Part shown: piece by piece, positions 6,182 through 18,498 of the stretch | Numbering within the stretch: position 1 is the stretch's first letter | Layout of the letters: each line of letters opens with the position of its first letter | Origin: a virus | Lineage: Duplodnaviria > Caudoviricetes | Virus record (IMG/VR): IMGVR_UViG_3300017560_000009 | Coordinates: 16,421 to 80,420 of that record | Direction: 5' to 3' (one strand) | DNA: 64,000 nt | The notes under the pieces: generated by a model | What the model was told of the DNA's origin: nothing | Database searches by the model: none | What the model saw: only the letters and a program-made list of their open reading frames with translations | Translations under genes and position numbers: made by a program

Positions 6182-9100
6182 ATGCAGATCGCACCTTTCC
6201 GTGGGGCGGGAGGCGGTGGCGGCGGTGGGGGATCTTATGATCGCACCAACGACAACCTGTTTTCCCGAGATACCGTCGAGCTGGTCCTTGGACTGAGCGT
6301 CGGCCCGATCCGTGGTTTGACGGGAGGGATGAAGACCTTCTATGTCGGCGGAACGCCTCTCATGGCCGAAGCCGGAACCATGAACTTTGAATCTTTCAAC
6401 CTGGGCCTGAAGCTCGGGTATGAAAGTGACACGCCCGTGAGCTACAAGCTCGGCGGCGAAGCCTCCAACAAGCAGGTCGGTACGAAGCTGGCCCAGAACT
6501 CGTGGATCACTCGCCAGACCGAAGCTTCGCTGCGCGGTGTGATCGACCAGATCCAAGTTCGTCTCACGATCTCGCAGCTGTACTATCAAGACGAAGACGG
6601 CATCTACAACAACACCGCTCAGTTTTATATCCAATACAAGCCGGCCTCATCGGGCTGGTGGCAGAACTACGGCGGTGGTCTGACCCAGCTTCATGGCAAG
6701 ACCATGAGCGGGTACTACGTGGACTACGTGTTCGACGTGCCGCGCATTGACGACGACTGGCTGGTTCGAGTCATGAAGGTTAACCCGGACAACAACAATG
6801 ACGTTGTGGCCGATCTCGCCTGGGAAAGCTATCAAGTCATCACGAAGCAGAACCGCCGCTACAACAAACTGGCGCTGGTCCATATCGTCGCGCTGGCGAC
6901 TAGCCAGTTCGGGTCGATCCCTGACTTCTCCGGCATCTATGATGGCCGCTTGATTTCGATCCCAACCAATTACAACCCTGACCTGCACATCTACGATGAG
7001 CTGGTTCCGTGGAACGGTACGTTCAAGACTGGCTGGACGAACAATCCGGCCTGGATCCTTTGGGATCTGATCATGAACACCGACTACGGCCTGCGGAAAT
7101 ACTATCCTCACATCACGGCCAACCGCTACGACTTCTACGAGGCGGCGAAGTGGTGTGACGCACCCGTGCCTAATGGCAAGGGCGGGTATCAACCTCGCTA
7201 TACGTGCAACATCGCACTGACCGAAGCGAGGAACGGTCTGGAGATGCTGCAATGGATCGCCGGCAGCTTCGGTGCCGTGATCTTCGATGACGCAACTGGT
7301 CAGATCTACCTGCGTGTGGACAAATGGGAAGAGCCGAAGATGCTCTTCACACCGGAGAACGTCGAGAACGGGGAGTTCAACTACAGCTTCACCGACCTCA
7401 CCACGCGCTACAACGACTACAAGGTCCAGTTCACGAACCCTGATCTGGACTGGAATACCGACCAGCGCCGCGTGAAGAGCGATGCTCACATCACGGCCTA
7501 TGGCAACATCGACACCGAGATGGTCATGGTCGGTTGCACGGACGAGCACGAAGCGCTGCGCCGTGGCTACTATCGCCTGATCACGTCCACAACCGAGACT
7601 GCTTCCGTCTCGTTCACCACAGCGCGCCTGGGAAAGATCGTTGATCCTTACACCATCGTTGCCATTGCCGACCCCACCCCTGGCTGGTCGATGCCTGGGC
7701 GCATCAAGCGCTACCACAACAGCTACATCGAGCTGCGCGACCCGATCTACTTCCTGGCTCAACAGAACTACACGCTGACGCTCCAGACCGTGGATGGACT
7801 GGTGAAGGTCGTGGTGGATCCCGAGCAAGTCGGTACGGTGTACAAGCTGCGCGTGGTCTCCGGCTACGTGCCTGATGGCCTGCCGGATCGCACGGTCTAC
7901 ACCATCGAAGACAACGGCAACTTCGGCATCGCCAAGCCGTTCCGTATCGTTGACTGGGAGTCCGTGGATGGAAGCCCGGACAAGTTCCGCTTCACCGCCG
8001 TCGAGGTCAACCGCAACAAGCAGGTCGGCGCGGACAACTGCACTCCTGTAGGCAGCGTCCAGTATTCGTTCAAGAACCCGCTGATCCCACCGCCTCCGAC
8101 GAACATCAAGGCCGAGTCTGGCACCGAGTATCTGATGATCTCGCAAGACGGCTCCTTGATGGCTCGCATCTTTGCATCTTGGGAAGCCCCGCCTAACGTG
8201 CTCATCGAGCGCTACGACATCCACTGGAAGGAAAGCCGGCTCTCCACCTGGAACTCAGCCACCAGCCCTGCGGAAAGCGTGTTGCTTGGTCCGTGCGAGA
8301 GCGGTGTGGCCTACGACATCGTGGTCTGGGCCGTGAACTCGTTCGGCAACCGTTCCGCCGCGCTGACGCTGTTCAACTACGTGGTGGTGGGCAAGAGCGA
8401 TCCTCCGTCGAACGTGAAGAACTTCACGATCCGTCGCCGCGCCAATGACATCCTGCTGCGCTGGGATGCGATCCCTGACCTGGACCGCAAGGGCTACGAG
8501 ATCCGGCAAGGCACGAACTGGGAAACTGCGACCGTGCTGGTCACGGACTACGCCGCTACACAGTTTGCGTGGACCACGACCGAAGGAGGCAGCTACACCT
8601 TCTTGATCCGCGCCATCGACACGTCGGGCAACTTCTCGCTGCTGCCCACGGCCCAGACGATCTATATCCAAGGCCCGAGCGCGGTCACAGGCGTGATCGC
8701 CATCCAGTCGAACAACCGGATCGAACTGCGCTGGACGCCGAACCCGGAAGACAACATCCTGGAGTACGAGATCCGCGAGGGCTTCTCGTGGGGTACAGGC
8801 GTGTTCTTGGCCAAGGTGAAGTCCACCAGCTACAGCATGACGGCAGGTTCGTCTGGCACGCGCATGTTCTGGCTGAAGGCCATCGCCTCGCCTGGGGTGT
8901 ATTCGGAACGCGCCACGTTCGTCACCACGGACATCGCGCAGCTGGACAACGCCAACATCATCTACACCACGGATGAGGTGGTCAACGGCTTCACTGGCAC
9001 GCGATACAACATGGTCGTGACCGGCGATACGCTGCGCATGGACGATGGCCGCGCCCACGCCGAGTACATCTTCCCGGTCGTGCTACCTACGGTCTTCCGC

Positions 9101-9784
9101 GCCCAGAACACGCTGTTCGTTGGCCTGGACGCCATCGTGGACCAGAGCACGCGCTGGGTCGATGCGACGTACCCCTGGACCGACGCCCGCGCCCAGACAC
9201 CGTGGACAATCCCTGGCGACATCTCGTCCATTGGCTACAAGGCCGAGATCGCTGTGCGCAAGGGCTTCCCGGACAACATCCGGCATTCGATCACCTTCAA
9301 CGGCACGCTGGTATCGGAAGGCCCAGCCGGCTACAACCCAGCTCCCGTCGTCTCGATGGACAACATCACGTATGCCACCGGCAAGTTCGGCCAAGGCTTG
9401 TACGTGCGAGGTGGAGACGGTGATAACCCGCTGCTGAAGACGATGCTGCTGCTGTCAACGCCGCTGCCTTCGGTATTCACCTACGGCGGTTGGTTCCGCA
9501 TCATGTCGGATGAGAACCAGGCCTTGACTACGCTGCACACTGACTCGTCTGGCCACTCGCTGTATTACAGCAAGACCCTAGAATCCCTCATATGGGGAGG
9601 CGCGGACGGCAACAGCTTGTACATCCCGTTCAAGCCGGAACTGGGTGAACGTTATCTGATGATGATGGTTCAAGATACCGCCAATCGTCGCCTGTATTTG
9701 GGCCGAGAAGATAAGACCTTTGTTCGCATTGAAATGTCAGCGGCTCCGTTTGAAACTGTGCAGTATCTGAGGTACACGACATGA
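6182..9784 (+). CDS. Tip attachment / central tail fibre protein J (FN3 repeats)
   Basis: 1200 aa. WTNNPAWILWDL, YEAAKWCD..VP.GKGG..PRYTCN, and FN3-like repeats (PPPPTNIKA, PSNVKNF, PSAVTGV). Confidence 0.92.
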   Translation: MQIAPFRGAGGGGGGGGSYDRTNDNLFSRDTVELVLGLSVGPIRGLTGGMKTFYVGGTPLMAEAGTMNFESFNLGLKLGYESDTPVSYKLGGEASNKQVGTKLAQNSWITRQTEASLRGVIDQIQVRLTISQLYYQDEDGIYNNTAQFYIQYKPASSGWWQNYGGGLTQLHGKTMSGYYVDYVFDVPRIDDDWLVRVMKVNPDNNNDVVADLAWESYQVITKQNRRYNKLALVHIVALATSQFGSIPDFSGIYDGRLISIPTNYNPDLHIYDELVPWNGTFKTGWTNNPAWILWDLIMNTDYGLRKYYPHITANRYDFYEAAKWCDAPVPNGKGGYQPRYTCNIALTEARNGLEMLQWIAGSFGAVIFDDATGQIYLRVDKWEEPKMLFTPENVENGEFNYSFTDLTTRYNDYKVQFTNPDLDWNTDQRRVKSDAHITAYGNIDTEMVMVGCTDEHEALRRGYYRLITSTTETASVSFTTARLGKIVDPYTIVAIADPTPGWSMPGRIKRYHNSYIELRDPIYFLAQQNYTLTLQTVDGLVKVVVDPEQVGTVYKLRVVSGYVPDGLPDRTVYTIEDNGNFGIAKPFRIVDWESVDGSPDKFRFTAVEVNRNKQVGADNCTPVGSVQYSFKNPLIPPPPTNIKAESGTEYLMISQDGSLMARIFASWEAPPNVLIERYDIHWKESRLSTWNSATSPAESVLLGPCESGVAYDIVVWAVNSFGNRSAALTLFNYVVVGKSDPPSNVKNFTIRRRANDILLRWDAIPDLDRKGYEIRQGTNWETATVLVTDYAATQFAWTTTEGGSYTFLIRAIDTSGNFSLLPTAQTIYIQGPSAVTGVIAIQSNNRIELRWTPNPEDNILEYEIREGFSWGTGVFLAKVKSTSYSMTAGSSGTRMFWLKAIASPGVYSERATFVTTDIAQLDNANIIYTTDEVVNGFTGTRYNMVVTGDTLRMDDGRAHAEYIFPVVLPTVFRAQNTLFVGLDAIVDQSTRWVDATYPWTDARAQTPWTIPGDISSIGYKAEIAVRKGFPDNIRHSITFNGTLVSEGPAGYNPAPVVSMDNITYATGKFGQGLYVRGGDGDNPLLKTMLLLSTPLPSVFTYGGWFRIMSDENQALTTLHTDSSGHSLYYSKTLESLIWGGADGNSLYIPFKPELGERYLMMMVQDTANRRLYLGREDKTFVRIEMSAAPFETVQYLRYTT

Positions 9785-10254
9785 GCATCATCGTTTCCGA
9801 CGTTTTCACGAGTCCTCAAGCCCTTACGTTTGACGACTTCCTGGAGATGTTGAATAACCAATCGCCTGTCGGGTTCAGCCCCTTCCAGCAGTTCGTGGCG
9901 GGAGACTATGAATACGACAAGGCGCTTTACCGGATCTCGATGAGTTCAACTTCCGGGGACCGAGGCATCATCACGAAGCTTCAAGTGGACGTGGACGTTC
10001 CTGACATGCTGGACCGTGGCCGAGTCACCATCACGCCGGCTGAAGCTGCGGCCGGATTGAAGTGGGTTCCGTTCACTCGTCCCTTCCACGTCCCACCTGT
10101 GCCGCTGGCTACCGTGATGAGCGCGTCTTACCCGTGCGTGGCCCGCATCCCCCAGGCCAACGTGACACGATCAGGCTTCATGGTCTCGCTTCAGAAAACG
10201 GACGGATCCGGAGGCACGGACGGCGTGCTTACCTGGGCCGCGCACTCGTATTAA
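9781..10254 (+). CDS. Hypothetical tail tip-associated protein
   Basis: ATGA-coupled to J; beta-rich C-terminus (PFTRPFHVPP...LTWAAHSY). Confidence 0.6.
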   Translation: MSIIVSDVFTSPQALTFDDFLEMLNNQSPVGFSPFQQFVAGDYEYDKALYRISMSSTSGDRGIITKLQVDVDVPDMLDRGRVTITPAEAAAGLKWVPFTRPFHVPPVPLATVMSASYPCVARIPQANVTRSGFMVSLQKTDGSGGTDGVLTWAAHSY

Positions 10255-10315: not shown

Positions 10316-11758
10316 ATGCAAGGCTATACCCAAATACCGGAGTCACAGCGCGTATCGGACTCGTTGCCGATGCTGCTGAACAACGACCTGACGGCGATCT
10401 CGCGCAACAGCGGTACGGCGTTCCCCACGGCCGGTCTCCAAGTGGGCATGTCCTTCCTGCATCTGACCGAGCGCAAGCTGTACCGTTTGGACAGCGTGTC
10501 GCCCATTACCTGGGCGCTGGAACTCGACCTGACGCGCCAGCTCGTCTACAACGACACCGTGGCGTTGCTCCAGATCGACATCGCCTCGAAGATCCCGCTG
10601 GCTGGAGGGGTCATGACCGGGTTGCTCACGCTGTCCGGCAACCCCGTCAACCTGATGCACGCGGCCAACAAGCAGTACGTGGACACCGCGATGGCCACGG
10701 CTTCCGCGTCCGCCAATACGCGGGTGCTGCGCACGGGCGACACCATGACCGGCCCGCTGACGCTTCCCGGTGATCCATCCTTGGATCTTCATGCCGCGAC
10801 GAAGCGCTACGCTGACTACCTGTACAACTTGTCAAACCAGAACAAGCTGGGCAAGGTCGGCGATACGGTGAACGAGATCTACAACACCGGATGGTTCCGT
10901 TCGGTCGGCGCTGTGGGCTGGTACAACCAGACTTATGGAGGCGGCATCACGATGTCGGATGCCTCCTGGGTCCGTGTCTATGGCAGCAAGGGCTTCTTGA
11001 CCGACTGGCACCAGTTGATTGCTGGCGGTCAGATCTACACCTCGCGCTACGGCTACCTCGAAAACGCCTTCGCCGCCAAGGGCGCTGAAGATCGCGTCTA
11101 CGCAGCCGGCACCTACGACGAAGGCGCAGGCGTCTGGTATCGACCCGGCAGCTACTATCTCGTCCGCTCCGGCGCGTACATCTATCTCGTGCGGCCCAAG
11201 GCCAACTGCAACTGCGACTGCAACTGCTCCTGCTTCCCGGCCGGCACGATGGTGCTGATGGCCGATGGCACGCAGAAGCCTATCGAACAGGTGCAGGTCG
11301 GCGATATGGTCATGGCCTGGGACGGCTCGGCCGACGAAGTGGTCGAGATGGAAACCCCGATCCTGGGGGATCGTCGCCTGATGCGCTTGACCGATGGCTC
11401 GCTATCCTGGTCCGAAGAGCATCTGCTGTGGACCCGCCAGGAAGGCAAGGAATGGTGGGGATGCGCCAACCGCAACCAGTGGTACTCCGAAGTGCTGGTG
11501 GACCACATCAAGGGTCTGCCTGACAACGCCTCGCTGCGTGACATCGGCGATCAAGTCGAGCTGGCTCACGTCTCTGGCTGGGTCAACCGTGAAGTCACGG
11601 GCCAGCAGGAAGATCCCAACACCCAGCTCTACCTGCCGCGCACGAAGCGCACGCACATGATCATCGTCAACGGCTATCTGGCCGGCGCGGGCGTCGATGG
11701 TTTCTCGATGGACTACAACGAAGTGAACTGGACGGGGATTCCCAATGTTGCTGCATAA
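10316..11758 (+). CDS. Short tail fibre with Cys-rich (N/D)C repeat and C-terminal Hint domain
   Basis: Fibre repeats LTLSGNP..LMHAANKQYVD and LTLPGDP..DLHAATKRYAD. Shufflon/gp37-like GWFRSVGAVGWYNQTYGGGITMSD segment. ANCNCDCNCS at 11201-11230 followed by CFPAGTMVLMADG. Confidence 0.85.
   Translation: MQGYTQIPESQRVSDSLPMLLNNDLTAISRNSGTAFPTAGLQVGMSFLHLTERKLYRLDSVSPITWALELDLTRQLVYNDTVALLQIDIASKIPLAGGVMTGLLTLSGNPVNLMHAANKQYVDTAMATASASANTRVLRTGDTMTGPLTLPGDPSLDLHAATKRYADYLYNLSNQNKLGKVGDTVNEIYNTGWFRSVGAVGWYNQTYGGGITMSDASWVRVYGSKGFLTDWHQLIAGGQIYTSRYGYLENAFAAKGAEDRVYAAGTYDEGAGVWYRPGSYYLVRSGAYIYLVRPKANCNCDCNCSCFPAGTMVLMADGTQKPIEQVQVGDMVMAWDGSADEVVEMETPILGDRRLMRLTDGSLSWSEEHLLWTRQEGKEWWGCANRNQWYSEVLVDHIKGLPDNASLRDIGDQVELAHVSGWVNREVTGQQEDPNTQLYLPRTKRTHMIIVNGYLAGAGVDGFSMDYNEVNWTGIPNVAA
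11231..11758 (+). other. Hint (Hedgehog/intein-like) autoprocessing domain within the tail fibre gene
   Basis: Block A CFPAGTMVLMADGTQKPIEQVQVGDMV, block B WSEEHLLW, block F-like LYLPRTKRTHMIIVNGYL. No terminal His-Asn. Confidence 0.85.
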
Positions 11759-12467
11759 ATCTTTCGTGGATCCCGCCCTCGTGTTCCAGGAGAACGAGGA
11801 AGAAGCCAAGAAGTGGTCCTTGACGATTCGTGTCCAGGCCACTCCGACTGGCTTCATCATGTCATCATCGGAATACTCGCTCTACTGGCAATTTGACTAC
11901 ACGAAGCTGGCGCACGGTGATGACATGATGTACATCGTGCAAGACCGTGGCCAGCAAGTGAAGTACATCTGGAAGTCCGAGTTCGCCAACTCCAAGGACG
12001 GGCTGGCTGCTGCGCTCCAGCGCAACAACATCGACTCCTTCTCACCGCTGGCCGTGATCGCTATCGGCCGCAGTACCAGCGACTGGGCGGCGCTCTTCAT
12101 GACGAACACGACCCAGACCCTGGGCGAGTTCGTGAAGCTGGACTCCAAGTACGAGCGCATGCGCAGCGACCATATCTTGATGGACATGGCCCCGTCGATG
12201 GCTCCCATGATCCAGGCCTATGACGACAAGATGGCGCTGCTGCGCAAGATCCGCACCAACGATTCCATCGCGGCGCTGGAGTCCCAGGTGGATCTGCTGA
12301 CGACCTGGGTGGCCGCGCTGATCCCGGAGGAATTCCGAGACCAGTTGCTGGAGGTCATAGCTTCAAGGAATAAAGATACCAAAGTGGTTTTTGATGATAT
12401 GCTTGCGTTCAAACAGCGCCTGCGTACTGCGGTGGGCGATTACCAACGCACCAAGAACCCGTCATGA
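11745..12467 (+). CDS. Hypothetical protein between the Cys-rich fibre and the radical SAM gene
   Basis: 240-aa ORF overlapping both neighbours (14-nt overlap and ATGA overlap). Confidence 0.75.
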   Translation: MLLHKSFVDPALVFQENEEEAKKWSLTIRVQATPTGFIMSSSEYSLYWQFDYTKLAHGDDMMYIVQDRGQQVKYIWKSEFANSKDGLAAALQRNNIDSFSPLAVIAIGRSTSDWAALFMTNTTQTLGEFVKLDSKYERMRSDHILMDMAPSMAPMIQAYDDKMALLRKIRTNDSIAALESQVDLLTTWVAALIPEEFRDQLLEVIASRNKDTKVVFDDMLAFKQRLRTAVGDYQRTKNPS

Positions 12468-13822
12468 CCACCTTTGTTCTCAAGACGGTCGATGCCAACG
12501 GCGTCGGCCGTGATTTTTTGTACAACAACATGGCGAGCGTGCTGCGCGATTACGCGACCAGCAACAAGCTCCTGCCGGGTGTGACGCAAGAGAAGGTCAC
12601 GCCCACTAAGCCCGTCATGCTGACCTGGGGTAAGAGCCGCGAGGTCCGCGTGCTGAAGATCCAGCTGGGCTTGTCCTGCAACTACTCCTGCGAATACTGC
12701 CTCCAGCGCTTCGTGCCTTTCGAGCAAGACACGAGCGCCCAGGACGTGGAAGCCTTCTTGGCTAGTCTGGAAGCCAACGTGGTGTTGGCCCCCGATGCCA
12801 AGATCCAGTTCTGGGGCGGCGAACCCCTGGTCTACTGGAAGACCATGTTCCCCCTGGCGCGTGCGCTGCGCGCCCGCTACCCCGAGGTCGAATTCTCGGT
12901 CATCACCAATGGTTCGCTCATGGACCCGGAGAAGGCGCTGTTCCTGTTGGAGCTGGGCTTCACGGTCTCCATCTCGCACGATGGCCCTGGCCAAGCTGTG
13001 CGTGGTGAAGACCCCTTCGACAACCCGAAGACCAAGCAGGCGATCTTGATGCTCTACAACCGCCTGCGTCCCCTCGACCGGATCTCGTTCAACGCGATGA
13101 TCCACAAGAACAACCAGAGCCGCGCAGCGGTGCAGAAGTTCTTCCAGGAGCTGACCGGCGACGAGGACGTGCCGATAGGGGAGGGCAGCTTCATCGACGC
13201 CTACGATGAAGGCGGCATGATGCACACCGCCATGACCGATCAAGAGCACATCGACTACCGCAGACTGGCCTACGATGAGATCTCCAACGGCCAAGCGTTG
13301 AACTTCGGCACGATCACGCACAAGATCCGCGACTTCTTCGAGACACTGGATACGGGCCGAAGCGCCTACCACGTCTGGCAGAAGTGCGGCATGGACAAGG
13401 ACGACCGCATCGCCGTCACGCTCAAGGGCGATGTGCTGACCTGCCAGAACGTCTCGACCACTTCGACCGCAGCCAATGGTGCGCCCCACCATGCTGGCAA
13501 CATCGAGAAGATGGAAGAAGTGAAGATCGAGACCAGCACGCACTGGCTCTCGCGGCCCAACTGCCGGTCTTGTCCGGTTTTGCAGTTGTGCCGTGGCTCG
13601 TGCATGTACCTGCAAGGCCCGCTGTGGGAGGCCAGCTGTGCAGCCGCCTACAGCGACAACGTGGTCCTACTGGCGGTGGCTATCAAGGAGCTGACTGGCC
13701 ACCAGCTGGTGTCTATCGAACCCCTGGAAGACTCGCTGCCTGAAGTGCGGCGCAACGTCTTCGCAGACCCAACTACCAAGAACCCGGCTCGGAAAGTCAT
13801 TCCGATCACCCTGGAGAAGTAA
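12464..13822 (+). CDS. Radical SAM enzyme with C-terminal SPASM domain
   Basis: CNYSCEYC (CxxxCxxC), FWGGEPL, ITNG, ISHDG. SPASM cysteines KCGM...LTCQ...CRSCPVLQLCRGSC...SC. Confidence 0.93.
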   Translation: MTTFVLKTVDANGVGRDFLYNNMASVLRDYATSNKLLPGVTQEKVTPTKPVMLTWGKSREVRVLKIQLGLSCNYSCEYCLQRFVPFEQDTSAQDVEAFLASLEANVVLAPDAKIQFWGGEPLVYWKTMFPLARALRARYPEVEFSVITNGSLMDPEKALFLLELGFTVSISHDGPGQAVRGEDPFDNPKTKQAILMLYNRLRPLDRISFNAMIHKNNQSRAAVQKFFQELTGDEDVPIGEGSFIDAYDEGGMMHTAMTDQEHIDYRRLAYDEISNGQALNFGTITHKIRDFFETLDTGRSAYHVWQKCGMDKDDRIAVTLKGDVLTCQNVSTTSTAANGAPHHAGNIEKMEEVKIETSTHWLSRPNCRSCPVLQLCRGSCMYLQGPLWEASCAAAYSDNVVLLAVAIKELTGHQLVSIEPLEDSLPEVRRNVFADPTTKNPARKVIPITLEK

Positions 13823-13824
13823 AA

Positions 13825-14238
13825 ATGGAAAACCCTCAAGCAGCCCAACCCGAAGGCCTCTCGCCGGAAGTCGCCAACGTCTTGATCAAGACGCTTCAGG
13901 ACCAGCGCAACACCGCCCATGATGAGCTGGCCAAGGCGCTCACGAACGTCACGCTGCTGACCCAGCAGGGCCAGCAGTTCCTGGAACAGCACACGATGTT
14001 GAACAAGGCTTACGACGAGCTGATCAAGAACTTCTCGGCCGTCGAAGAAGAGGCCGTCGCGCTGCGCGCCGCGAATGCCGCCTTGACCGCCAAGCTGGAG
14101 CAAGCCCAGGCTCCGCAACCCGGCGTGGTCAGCACGCTCATGACGGCCGACAATCCCCCGGCCGTGATGCCTCCCAGTCACCAAGACCCTCTTGCGCCGA
14201 CTGGCGGGCCGGTGACGGCGAGGGGGTCGGAAAGTTGA
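13825..14238 (+). CDS. Hypothetical coiled-coil protein
   Basis: Heptad-rich 137 aa, starts 2 nt after the radical SAM stop. Confidence 0.7.
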   Translation: MENPQAAQPEGLSPEVANVLIKTLQDQRNTAHDELAKALTNVTLLTQQGQQFLEQHTMLNKAYDELIKNFSAVEEEAVALRAANAALTAKLEQAQAPQPGVVSTLMTADNPPAVMPPSHQDPLAPTGGPVTARGSES

Positions 14239-14456: not shown

Positions 14457-14987
14457 GTGATCATCACCCCCCAACAACTCAAGCGGATCATGCCCAACGC
14501 ATCCATCGCCAACACGGAGATCTATGCTCCCTTGTTGACGAAGCACATGATCAAGTGGCACATCGACACGTTCGAGCAAGCCACGGCTTTCATTGCCAAC
14601 GTTGGTCATGAAAGCGGCGAGTTGAAGTACACGGAAGAGATCGCTAGTGGAGCGGCTTACGAAGGCCGCAAGGATCTGGGGAACACTGAACCCGGTGATG
14701 GGAAGCGCTACAAAGGAAGAGGGCTGATTCAACTGACGGGCCGCACGAACTACCTGCTCATGGGCCTGATGCTGGATCAAGATTTCATCAACAACCCAAC
14801 CTTGCTCATGCAACCTGAGTTCGCGTCGGAGAGTGCTGCGGCCTTTTGGTGGAACAACTATTTGGACAAGGTGGCAACTTCAGCGTCCAAGTTCATCACC
14901 GTGGTCAAACGCATCAACGGCGGCACCAACGGCATAGACCACCGCGAACAGCTGTACAAGAATGCGCGTAAGGTTCTCGCGGAGTAA
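14457..14987 (+). CDS. Endolysin, glycoside hydrolase family 19
   Basis: FIANVGHESG, YEGRKDLGNTEPGDGKRYKGRGLIQLTGRTNY, RINGGTNGIDHR. GTG start with GGAG RBS. Confidence 0.93.
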   Translation: MIITPQQLKRIMPNASIANTEIYAPLLTKHMIKWHIDTFEQATAFIANVGHESGELKYTEEIASGAAYEGRKDLGNTEPGDGKRYKGRGLIQLTGRTNYLLMGLMLDQDFINNPTLLMQPEFASESAAAFWWNNYLDKVATSASKFITVVKRINGGTNGIDHREQLYKNARKVLAE

Positions 14988-16362: not shown

Positions 16363-16980
16363 ATGACCCAACAACTAATGCCGACCAACGTGGCGGGCCA
16401 GCAAGTCATCTTGGTCGTGTCCCCTGTTGTGGCCAACGGAGATTCCATCGTGCCTCTCAGAATGCTTTACGGGAGCGGCGCTCCTGGCAACAACGTCGGT
16501 GACGACAAAGAGTTCTATCTGAACATCGACAACTACCGCCTGTATGGTCCGAAGATCGGTGGGCTGTGGGGCGATGGCTATCTGCTGAAGGGCGACAAGG
16601 GCGATGCCGGCCAGAACGGCAAGATCAACATGGAGACCATCGCCACGCTGGTCGGTGGCACGGGGTCTCCCTTCACCTTCAACCTGGATCTGTCGCAAGA
16701 AGCGTCGATGTTCACTCTGGTGCTCCAGGCTGATGAAAACGCCATCATGCTGCAAAACACGAGCGCGCCCGAAGGCATGGCTCGTACCTTCACGATGATC
16801 CTGCAACAAGGCACCGGAAGCAGCCGCGTGACGACCTGGGATCCGCGCATCCGCTGGCCGGATAACGTGAAGCCCACGCTGTCGTTCCAAAGCGGCATGC
16901 GTGACATCTTCCACTTCGTGTCGCTGGACCGTGGTGACTCGTTCATCCCGTTCTACCTCGGCGGCAACTTCCCGGTGTAA
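16363..16980 (+). CDS. Putative virion structural protein
   Basis: YGSGAP...FYLNID..RLYGPK..G.WGDG..LKGDKGDAG motif of the type seen in fibre/collar proteins. Confidence 0.6.
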   Translation: MTQQLMPTNVAGQQVILVVSPVVANGDSIVPLRMLYGSGAPGNNVGDDKEFYLNIDNYRLYGPKIGGLWGDGYLLKGDKGDAGQNGKINMETIATLVGGTGSPFTFNLDLSQEASMFTLVLQADENAIMLQNTSAPEGMARTFTMILQQGTGSSRVTTWDPRIRWPDNVKPTLSFQSGMRDIFHFVSLDRGDSFIPFYLGGNFPV

Positions 16981-16983
16981 GTC

Positions 16984-18498
16984 ATGCGCAACATTGTCGC
17001 CAGTGCTTTCTCCCGCAACTCTCCCTTCGCGCAAAACGCGAAGATGATGGGCGTCGGCTTCGTGGAGTTCCTGAAGCTGAAGACGGGCTTCGCCGACGCC
17101 ACGCATCCATGGACGAACTACGTGGTCAACGACGTGGGCGTCATCGCCAACACGCTGACTGGCACGGACATGGGCAACGGCTGGACCGACCACACTGCGG
17201 TCTCGCTGGATCAGATGGAGCTGATGCAGGGTGCGTTCGCCATGTGGAAGGCCACGGGCGAGCCGCGCTATTACACCCTCTTCATGCAGACCTTGACCGC
17301 GTATCGCACGTACTTCTACGCTGGCCAGCCTGTGCCTCCGTTCGCGCAGATCTGGCGCGCCAACTACATCGTCAATGCCCGCGAGCCGTTCACCTTGAAT
17401 GGTCAGACGGTGGCGCGCAACCAGCCCTACGATCCTCTGCCTCCGGGTGGTGGGACGGTCGTGACCGATCCTGCGCTCATGGGCAACTACACGTTTGCGG
17501 ATCTGTCGCTGGCAGAACTGCTGTCCCAGGCCTTCTCGTTCACAGCGGAGCGCGACTTCCAGGCGATGTTCAACTCGGTCGTCTACACCGCGTTCGACTT
17601 CCTGGCCAACATGGAACAAGGTAACGCGGGGGTGAGCCTTCCCTACGTGCCTGGGGCCGCGCCTGGAACCATCGGCATGACGCCACGATTGTTCCGCAAG
17701 GACTCGTGGAGCGGCATGTGCTTTCTGGCCATGCAGTATCCTTCAGCCATGGCGACGGCCGGTCGTGCAGACGAGATGATCAACGTCATCAACCTGTACA
17801 CGGACTCGCAGGATGCGTACCTCTCGGCCAAGGCCATTGATGGTCCGTTCTACACGACGTACCTGTGGGACCGTCCTGGAAACCCTGATCCTGGCGGCTT
17901 CCCGTGGGCGAACTCCGGGCTGAACAACGACAACGCCCGAGCCTTCCTGAACATGGCCCGCCTGATGCTCACGCTGCATGAGCGCAATGGCACGCCGATC
18001 CCGGAACCCGAGCGCATCTGCACGCGGCACGCTGAATGGCTCTATGCCTACGTGCAAGCCAACAACGAGCTGCCCACGTTCAATGATCCGATGGATCCGA
18101 TCAACGCGACCGCGCCGGGAATCTACGGCCCGACCGCCGCGCTGTATCTGACCGGCCTCGTGTTCATGGCGCGTGCTGGCTACGACACGCCCGAGATGCA
18201 GACGCTTCGCACGTTCTGCTTCAACAAGCTGTCGTCGTTCTACGCCATCACGCGCTCGCCCGTCGATATGTCCGGGGCGTTCACGCCGGACGCTGCGAAT
18301 CGGAACTTCACGTCAGCGCACGGTGGCATGGCGCTGCGTGCTCTGGGAGAATTCATCTCCTGGGAAACTCGCAACGACCCTGCTGTGGTTCGACCTGTTG
18401 GTCTGGCGCGTGTGATGCTGGAAAACGAATCGGGGTTCGTGCGCGTGGAAACCGCCGATGGTGTTGTGTTGAAAGAAGAATCTCAAGCCGAGGAATAA
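16984..18498 (+). CDS. Hypothetical virion-associated protein, possible alpha/alpha-toroid glycosidase-like fold
   Basis: 504 aa with aromatic-rich helical repeats (AMWKATGEPRYYTLF; FYAGQPVP). Acidic C-terminal LENESG motif precedes the fibre gene. Fold call is tentative. Confidence 0.55.
   Translation: MRNIVASAFSRNSPFAQNAKMMGVGFVEFLKLKTGFADATHPWTNYVVNDVGVIANTLTGTDMGNGWTDHTAVSLDQMELMQGAFAMWKATGEPRYYTLFMQTLTAYRTYFYAGQPVPPFAQIWRANYIVNAREPFTLNGQTVARNQPYDPLPPGGGTVVTDPALMGNYTFADLSLAELLSQAFSFTAERDFQAMFNSVVYTAFDFLANMEQGNAGVSLPYVPGAAPGTIGMTPRLFRKDSWSGMCFLAMQYPSAMATAGRADEMINVINLYTDSQDAYLSAKAIDGPFYTTYLWDRPGNPDPGGFPWANSGLNNDNARAFLNMARLMLTLHERNGTPIPEPERICTRHAEWLYAYVQANNELPTFNDPMDPINATAPGIYGPTAALYLTGLVFMARAGYDTPEMQTLRTFCFNKLSSFYAITRSPVDMSGAFTPDAANRNFTSAHGGMALRALGEFISWETRNDPAVVRPVGLARVMLENESGFVRVETADGVVLKEESQAEE

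Follow-up and report, generated by a model that had tools for sequence, protein, structure and literature searches.

We analyzed a 64,000-nucleotide stretch of phage DNA (hereafter the window; bases 16421-80420 of the 80,420-bp, 99%-complete IMG/VR virus record IMGVR_UViG_3300017560_000009), in which three overlapping genes encode a candidate tail-fiber precursor of 480 aa, a 240-aa accessory protein, and a 452-aa radical S-adenosylmethionine (SAM) enzyme with a SPASM domain. As judged from their sequences, these genes probably constitute a module for maturation of the fiber tip, in which a C-terminal Hint domain would cut itself off the fiber and the radical SAM enzyme would then cross-link, through thioethers, the short ladder of alternating cysteines that the cut leaves exposed. 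The source phage is a JWF-like siphophage. Among phages in culture, Achromobacter phages 2-1 and JWF are closest to it; their gene order is identical to that of the window, and their radical SAM enzymes are 88% (2-1) and 79% (JWF) identical to the one found here.

Results

Cysteine ladders at fiber tips occur together with the radical SAM enzyme

The end of the predicted fiber body and the start of the Hint domain are encoded by aag gcc aac tgc aac tgc gac tgc aac tgc tcc tgc ttc ccg, which translates as K-A-N-C-N-C-D-C-N-C-S-C-F-P. This reading of the DNA bears out the original prediction, which had the fiber body ending in ANCNCDCNCS right before the Hint domain. The first cysteine of that domain, Cys1, is C306 (11231-11233) and immediately follows S305 of the ladder; residues 1-296 of the fiber contain no cysteine at all, and the ladder holds the sole cysteines of the predicted mature fiber.

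The same prediction had called for a neighborhood search asking whether homologues of the radical SAM enzyme accompany fibers that terminate in (NC)n, whether or not a Hint domain follows. Eighty viral loci (cited here by L numbers) were fetched via an alignment of homologues, and the 63 with at least 3 kb of DNA upstream of the enzyme gene were counted. We scored a locus as positive if it had a same-strand open reading frame (ORF) with at least three x-C units at, or a few residues from, its stop codon, or a ladder running into CFPxGT, the sequence that opens a Hint domain. A ladder upstream of the enzyme gene was present by this definition in 57 of the 63 loci, rising to about 61 after inspection, and four of the six misses could be explained: the fiber of Ralstonia phage RSP15 ends in N-C-Q-C-G-N, the ladder ORF lies further upstream in L024 and L028, and L044 carries a Hint form outside the search pattern. 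The result was replicated in bacterial genomes, where 52 of the 55 loci with enough upstream DNA (80 loci taken) were positive; most of these are Burkholderiales prophages (for example, of Limnohabitans, Polynucleobacter, Burkholderia paludis MSh1, and Paraburkholderia), along with some from Alphaproteobacteria.

We also ran the test in reverse, by scanning viral contigs for DNA encoding NCNCNC[ND]C. The motif lay in frame at the tip of an ORF in 46 loci, and the enzyme was found in the fetched stretch of 36 of them, most of the other 10 having no downstream DNA. The enzyme is also present in seven additional loci, which have longer tails or Hint caps; among the out-of-frame or unrelated hits it was found in 0 of 27. 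The neighborhood search thus gave a strongly positive result whether it started from the enzyme or from the ladder, two independent collections agreed, and these two-way tests exclude chance as the cause of the pairing of ladder and enzyme. Five loci (L121, L124, L129, L141, and L161) consist of just two genes, a tip ORF and then the radical SAM gene directly, indicating that the other genes of the module are dispensable accessories.

The composition of the ladder is tightly restricted. Ladders begin with N and finish with C, and the 90 distinct free tips have 4-8 Cys each, with 41 of them ending exactly on Cys. Their non-Cys positions are occupied by N (350), D (42), or A (21), no other residue appearing more than 6 times. 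Across 12 aligned Hint-type fibers, N297, C298, N299, C300, C302, and C304 vary hardly or not at all, and the number of rungs differs even among close relatives, there being four Cys in the window and in phage 2-1 and five in JWF. The (NC)n pattern can also be read as a series of overlapping NxxC motifs (N297-C300, N299-C302, and D301-C304). In many unrelated fiber bodies, the ladder is preceded by a short conserved strand-turn-strand element (Y-Y-L-V-R-S-G-A-Y-I-Y-L-V-R in the window), which may serve as the recognition element. Some ladder proteins have further repeats ahead of the terminal ladder, either a period-3 (C-Q-x)n repeat (e.g., ...Q-T-C-Q-G-C-Q-K-C-Q...) or extra N-C-N-C-G-x-F-N-C blocks.

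The 480-aa ORF itself is a candidate tail fiber on the grounds of its position after the gene for gpJ, the central tail fiber, and of short matches to tail-fiber families (phrog_16641, 4e-8; phrog_6320, 6e-5). It carries collar-like LHAA(T/N)K-x-Y-(V/A)D repeats, and residues 189-250 (10880-11065) match Shufflon_N (PF04917) with 34.1 bits, the cut-off being 27.5. In PilV-type shufflon adhesins, the part that corresponds to this match closes the constant region and immediately precedes the variable tips.

A Hint domain would release the ladder as a free C terminus

The Pfam model Hom_end_hint (PF05203) covers just the first 40 residues of the Hint domain (45.4 bits versus a cut-off of 32.1), and the fold is better seen in the AlphaFold model, for which the predicted local distance difference test (pLDDT) score is 77-92 over residues 305-460. 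Using VIA-align, we found that this model superposes on the bacterial intein-like (BIL) domain BIL2 (6tmm; Z 17.4, root-mean-square deviation 2.3 A over 144 residues), and also on mini-inteins, the C. thermocellum BIL domain 2lwy (Z 14.8), and hedgehog (1at0; Z 13.3). C306, F307, H369 of block B (S-E-E-H), and W372 are invariant in the 12 Hint-type fibers. The domain thus combines the fold, the N-terminal Cys nucleophile, and the block-B T/S-x-x-His of Hint/BIL autoprocessing domains, features that it shares with the hedgehog type, as it does its C-terminal position with nothing to splice to; it differs in its fiber cargo, in the Cys ladder at the scissile bond, and in a conserved 20-aa tail after the fold. 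A reading of the domain as a splicing intein was rejected, as the protein ends about 20 residues past the fold, with neither a terminal His-Asn nor a C-extein; for the same reasons, the domain is predicted to be able to cleave its N-terminal bond and not to splice. We consider cleavage very likely.

The 20-aa tail (residues 461-480; 11696-11755) is modeled with low pLDDT. Its residues D466, Y467, and W472 are nearly invariant in the clade of JWF and Burkholderia loci and in L163, and the tail is absent from L044. It might be a docking motif.

How the cap is distributed among relatives suggests what its removal would achieve. A tree built from 82 enzyme sequences calls for at least three state changes to account for Hint-capped forms (the JWF/Burkholderia clade, L163, and L183), and additional capped cases are found in the L044/L222 clade and in the fiber of L194. 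Two Hint-less loci, L021 and L030, share the fiber N terminus and its 157-aa upstream partner with the window, and there the fiber stops at the ladder; the L021 homologue is 306 aa long, versus 305 aa for the predicted cleaved product. As Hint-less fibers stop at the ladder, cleavage between S305 and C306 would yield what most relatives encode directly. The earlier proposal that Hint cleavage would expose a C-terminal ladder therefore gains support from the position of the ladder at the stop codon in most homologous systems, from the invariance of Cys1 and the block-B S/T-x-x-His, from a Hint-less homologue of cleaved-product length, and from the occurrence of caps at no fewer than three separate places on the enzyme tree.

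One clade of the enzyme shows a different arrangement. In L108:41-943 (- strand), L262:3037-3750, and L265:3004-3930, the ladder ORF adjoins the enzyme gene (downstream of it in L262 and L265) and runs past ...N-C-S-K-I-I-C-(A/T)-K-L into a conserved extension of 100-170 aa that does not look like a Hint domain. This extension may be a second kind of C-terminal cap.

The enzyme is a complete radical SAM/SPASM protein of an unnamed family

The enzyme belongs to the radical SAM superfamily (PF04055; 43.3 bits against the Pfam cut-off of 29.5) and to the SPASM group (TIGR04085; 35.3 bits against the NCBIfam cut-off of 27, residues 308-382). Its C72-X3-C76-X2-C79 motif is invariant in 24 homologues, as is the SPASM pattern C308-X13-G322-X4-C327, C367-X2-C370-X5-C376-X3-C380, C392. 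With this CX3CX2C motif, the full 7-Cys motif, and both family cut-offs passed, its description in the original prediction as a complete radical SAM/SPASM enzyme can stand. It falls in phrog_1802 (3.2e-70), and the family is very large in metagenomes, with 2729 proteins at E <1e-20 among 8000 candidates scored.

Over its full length, the protein aligns best, among NCBIfam models, with PapB, CcpM, and the anaerobic sulfatase-maturating enzyme (anSME). None of the named families can claim the protein as a member: it scored 58.7 bits versus 340 for the PapB-family ranthipeptide maturases (NF047865), 51.9 versus 500 for CcpM, 49.7 versus 453 for QhpD (TIGR03906), and 47.7 versus 349.45 for the anaerobic sulfatase maturases (TIGR03942). 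Since every named equivalog model failed widely, we regard the enzyme as representing an unnamed family within the SPASM group; the older label of the JWF enzyme, "anaerobic sulfatase-maturating enzyme," is unsupported, the anSME score being far under its cut-off. The nearest named families are mostly thioether-forming maturases (PapB, CcpM, and QhpD), and by profile the most closely related solved structures are 8vpo, CteB (5wgg), and anSME (4k36). Next to the cluster motifs, the enzyme has L80 after CX3CX2C and Q328-N329 after C327, the counterparts in CteB being F112 and H363-Q364 (PMC10288494). Given its recurrent partnership with the ladder, the enzyme is very likely to act on it.

Accessory genes vary between loci

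The genes found between fiber and enzyme fall into three families that are mutually unrelated by hhalign: family A (about 250-310 aa, with an immunoglobulin-like end), family B (with a weak match to 2-oxoglutarate [2OG]-Fe(II) oxygenases, PF13759), and family C, to which the 240-aa protein belongs. No family A or B homologue is present in any frame of the window. Family C always lies directly upstream of the radical SAM gene, including at the Hint-less loci L019, L021, L030, and L067, and has just 28 representatives among 1.84 billion proteins. The 240-aa protein has no match in Pfam, PHROG, or NCBIfam and no conserved Cys or His. It is modeled with a pLDDT of 94.4 as an N-terminal beta domain followed by a helical bundle, for which a VIA-align comparison with 48,161 chains reached a Z of no more than 5.6 (helical part), plus a weak 4.8 to SPP1 gp22 (beta part); Foldseek against the PDB found nothing at E <=1e-3, and the ESM Atlas nothing above chance. 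A predicted complex of the enzyme with the 240-aa protein scored 0.00, which speaks neither for nor against binding. With low confidence, we suggest that this protein is an adaptor or chaperone.

Two other loci illustrate the range of gene content. Phage RSP15, an Ackermannviridae myovirus (L003:5377-9287), has a "side tail fiber fragment" with its N-C-Q-C-G-N at the stop codon; next come a gene of family A, one encoding 276 aa, and a radical SAM enzyme that is 44.5% identical to that of the window. RSP15 is in culture, and its ladder, with two Cys, is minimal. In L005:3458-4379 (and also L006), three tandem ORFs of 97-110 aa, each with a fiber-like start and an N-C ladder at its stop, precede a gene of family A, one resembling 2OG oxygenases, and the radical SAM gene, an arrangement that resembles a multi-precursor cluster. 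Further small genes resembling P4H/2OG enzymes lie nearby in L005 (2853-3443 on the + strand and 7160-8136 on the - strand).

Gene layout of the locus

The features of the locus are collected in Table 1.

Table 1. Positions of the fiber-tip genes and their domains in the window
Feature	Coordinates	Strand	Remarks
157-aa protein	9781..10254	+	Between gpJ and fiber; conserved neighbor of this fiber type
Candidate tail-fiber precursor, 480 aa	10316..11758	+	Body 1-296, Cys ladder 297-305, Hint domain 306-480
Cys ladder N297-C-N-C-D-C-N-C-S305	11204..11230	+	DNA read; proposed substrate core
Hint/BIL autoprocessing domain (C306 to ~460), 20-aa tail, and stop	11231..11758	+	Hom_end_hint, model, fold alignment
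240-aa accessory protein, family C	11745..12467	+	Beta domain 1-125, helical bundle 140-237
Radical SAM/SPASM enzyme, 452 aa, phrog_1802	12464..13822	+	Proposed ladder-modifying maturase
CX3CX2C motif (C72, C76, C79)	12677..12700	+	Radical SAM [4Fe-4S] cluster site, invariant in alignment
SPASM region, seven invariant Cys	13385..13639	+	Predicted ligands of two auxiliary clusters

The module lies between gpJ (6182-9784; phrog_31, 7e-163) and an endolysin gene (14457-14987), in the series gpJ, 157-aa gene, fiber, 240-aa protein, radical SAM enzyme, 137-aa coiled-coil protein, and lysis genes. The three overlapping genes that had been described within the tail module were all recovered as ORFs at their expected positions: the stop codon of the fiber gene (11756-11758) follows the start of the 240-aa gene to give a 14-nt overlap, and an ATGA at 12464-12467 is common to the stop of the 240-aa gene and the start of the enzyme gene. 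By tblastn, the 157-aa gene is directly 5' of the fiber gene in all JWF-like loci, and it also precedes the fiber in L021, L030, and L044; its product has no Pfam or PHROG family match, and it is a context gene outside the maturation step. The 137-aa coiled-coil protein (13825-14238), which follows the enzyme in the window, 2-1, and JWF and ends in A-R-G-S-E-S in all three, was not found by tblastn in more distant JWF-like loci and is for that reason probably outside the module.

After the lysis cassette, at 16363-18498, are two further tail-fiber-type genes, encoding proteins of 205 aa (phrog_27998) and 504 aa (phrog_2871, tail protein), from which it follows that the phage has a second fiber set without a Cys ladder. 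A terminator-like hairpin with a T-run (12485-12521, + strand) lies just inside the 5' end of the enzyme gene; it is a consensus match only, and such sites are not more numerous in the region than in shuffled sequence.

Discussion

The model that we propose would begin with synthesis of the 480-aa precursor. The Hint/BIL domain would carry out an N-to-S acyl shift at Cys306, and resolution of the resulting thioester would cut the S305/C306 bond, leaving a 305-aa fiber that ends in N-C-N-C-D-C-N-C-S-COOH. The radical SAM enzyme, perhaps assisted by the 240-aa protein, would then bind the ladder and hold a Cys thiolate on an auxiliary Fe-S cluster while the 5'-deoxyadenosyl radical takes a hydrogen from a neighboring Asn or Asp, probably at C-beta, so that thioether (ranthionine-type) links would form within one chain or between fiber chains. 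The outcome would be a redox-insensitive, covalently braced fiber tip built inside the reducing cytoplasm. We favor thioether cross-linking of the exposed ladder because of the precedents set by NxxcB, PapB, QhpD, and CrpC; that the product is a non-alpha thioether we consider an even bet.

Of these precedents, the streptococcal pair NxxcB/NxxcA, which makes a RiPP (a peptide produced by ribosomes and modified after translation), resembles the ladder system in motif. NxxcB, a radical SAM/SPASM-type enzyme, joins the sulfur of Cys to the C-beta of an Asn that lies three positions upstream, where Asp, Ala, or Gln is tolerated as well (PMC9389541), and the phage ladder likewise consists of NxxC motifs, with N, D, and A at its non-Cys positions. 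However, NxxcA is a short, quorum-regulated peptide with a leader, whereas the phage substrate would be the C terminus of a 305-aa fiber, its motifs overlap, and no RRE was detected. PapB, which acts on PapA to make freyrasin, gave the best full-length NCBIfam alignment (NF047865, residues 62-381 of the phage enzyme), and both it and CteB (acting on CteA), whose structure is among the closest to the phage enzyme, install Cys thioethers on Cys-rich cores. PapB also recognizes carboxylates, the free C terminus included (PMC12373016). Unlike the phage system, it works on Cys-X3-Asp, with the acceptor downstream of Cys, has an RRE, and yields small-peptide products. That SPASM enzymes cross-link proteins and not only peptides is known from QhpD/QhpC and from CrpC/CrpA, described in 2026 (PMC13692751). 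QhpD and CrpC resemble the phage proposal in that their target is a large or folded protein, the product of a neighboring gene, in which they form ranthionine links (Cys-to-Asp/Glu or others), but QhpC is an enzyme subunit and CrpA an archaeal protein, and neither is viral, carries an N-C ladder at its C terminus, or is coupled to a Hint domain.

The phage system was originally described as RiPP-like. The term is apt insofar as the system would work like a RiPP pathway, but the definition of a RiPP does not extend to it: the precursor is a 480-aa fiber, no PqqD/RRE family was matched in Pfam or NCBIfam, and the module contains no protease or exporter. As the substrate is a 305-aa structural protein and no RRE family was matched, RiPP-like can be taken only as an analogy. 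The Hint cap, for its part, has a parallel in the Peptidase_S74 intramolecular chaperone domains of phage tailspikes and fibers, which are C-terminal, remove themselves by means of a Ser-Lys dyad, and are needed for trimer folding. Both kinds of domain would remove themselves, but their folds and chemistry are unrelated, and most relatives of the phage do without the Hint domain.

Several points weigh against the proposed maturation or limit how far it can be specified. Because the matches to named maturases are far under their cut-offs, the chemistry is unreadable from homology, and neither the enzyme nor the 240-aa protein has an RRE/PqqD family among its Pfam or NCBIfam matches. Most related systems carry a 2OG-Fe(II)-oxygenase-like gene that is absent from this phage, so the chemistry may differ between lineages or hold hidden steps. 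Two loci, L036 and L076, have the enzyme but show no ladder ORF. AlphaFold models the fiber body poorly (pLDDT <50, residues 1-304 being unreliable), which limits any statement on tip geometry, and fitting three overlapping NxxC rings onto nine residues may be hard for steric reasons. We infer the cleavage, its precedence over modification, the type of chemistry, and the function of a modified tip.

The rival explanations differ in what they make of the ladder. It is unlikely that the enzyme acts on the ladder by some other chemistry, such as sactionine alpha-thioether formation, formylglycine formation as by anSME, epimerization, or MftC-like C-terminal oxidation, even though its weak scores are much alike for anSME (47.7 bits, full length), PapB (58.7), and CcpM (51.9) and the anSME structure 4k36 is among its closest solved relatives over the full length. 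For formylglycine formation, anSME uses a C/S-x-P/A-x-R sulfatase motif, which the ladder lacks. The strictly C-terminal position of the ladder does recall MftC, an enzyme that acts on a C-terminal dipeptide (PMC10288494). Against all such chemistries, the acceptor-like positions are occupied almost solely by the residues N, D, and A that the beta-thioether enzyme NxxcB tolerates, and ladders that start with N and end with C are what would be expected if each Cys pairs with an upstream acceptor. The tip of the T4 long tail fiber (gp37) has a His-x-His iron ladder. By analogy, the Cys ladder could be a metal or Fe-S site, or a disulfide knot, of the assembled fiber, with the radical SAM enzyme serving another purpose. 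Cysteines that alternate along a single strand face would be well placed to bind metal in a trimer, and the authors of the CrpA study say that their Cys-rich protein may bind metals (PMC13692751). This explanation is nonetheless very unlikely, as it gives no reason for a near-obligate two-way linkage to the enzyme that extends to two-gene loci and to unrelated fiber bodies, and it leaves the near-exclusive N, D, and A at non-Cys positions unexplained.

The least probable of the rivals, which we hardly credit, is that the ladder proteins are precursors of a small released peptide, the fiber-like part being merely a leader and the locus a genuine RiPP cluster carried by a phage. Enzymes of this class are typical of RiPP pathways, and some loci do have several small (97-110 aa) tandem ladder paralogues reminiscent of RiPP precursors (L005); the ladder protein of the window, however, is the fiber gene after gpJ, with a conserved N terminus and a conserved 157-aa upstream partner, and ladder ORFs elsewhere reach 690 aa. 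Nor is there a protease or exporter gene in the module, and the Hint domain would cut after the ladder, keeping it on its 296-aa body. 

A bolder variant of the proposed thioether cross-linking, which we consider rather unlikely, is that the enzyme joins the chains of the fiber trimer by inter-chain Cys-to-Asn/Asp thioethers, with the Hint domain and its D-Y-x4-W tail acting as a self-removing follower that recruits the enzyme. It is just as speculative that the tip would thereby be locked covalently and made redox-proof, as capsid "chainmail" achieved by radical chemistry might be, with the number of rungs (4 here, 5 in JWF) tuning the tip.

Searches of the literature for radical SAM enzymes with tail fibers, SPASM, thioethers, or phage-encoded RiPPs, and of papers citing JWF, found no description of this system. 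The enzyme class is known, and the chemistry probably is as well; what would be new is the virion-fiber substrate, the alternating ladder at its C terminus, and the coupling to Hint self-cleavage. If the proposal is true, phages use radical SAM enzymes to rewrite the chemistry of their host-recognition fibers, a kind of modification that until now has been known in natural-product peptides and in two or three proteins of cells, but not in virus particles. It would explain the abundant phage radical SAM family phrog_1802, usually annotated as vaguely metabolic or as "sulfatase-maturating," and would reveal a new use of Hint domains, as a removable cap that exposes a C-terminal substrate. It would affect fiber engineering and heterologous expression, since such a fiber would need its enzyme, and cultured carriers are at hand in Achromobacter phages JWF and 2-1 and Ralstonia phage RSP15. 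More broadly, it would show how a virus assembled in the reducing cytoplasm can brace its proteins without disulfides.

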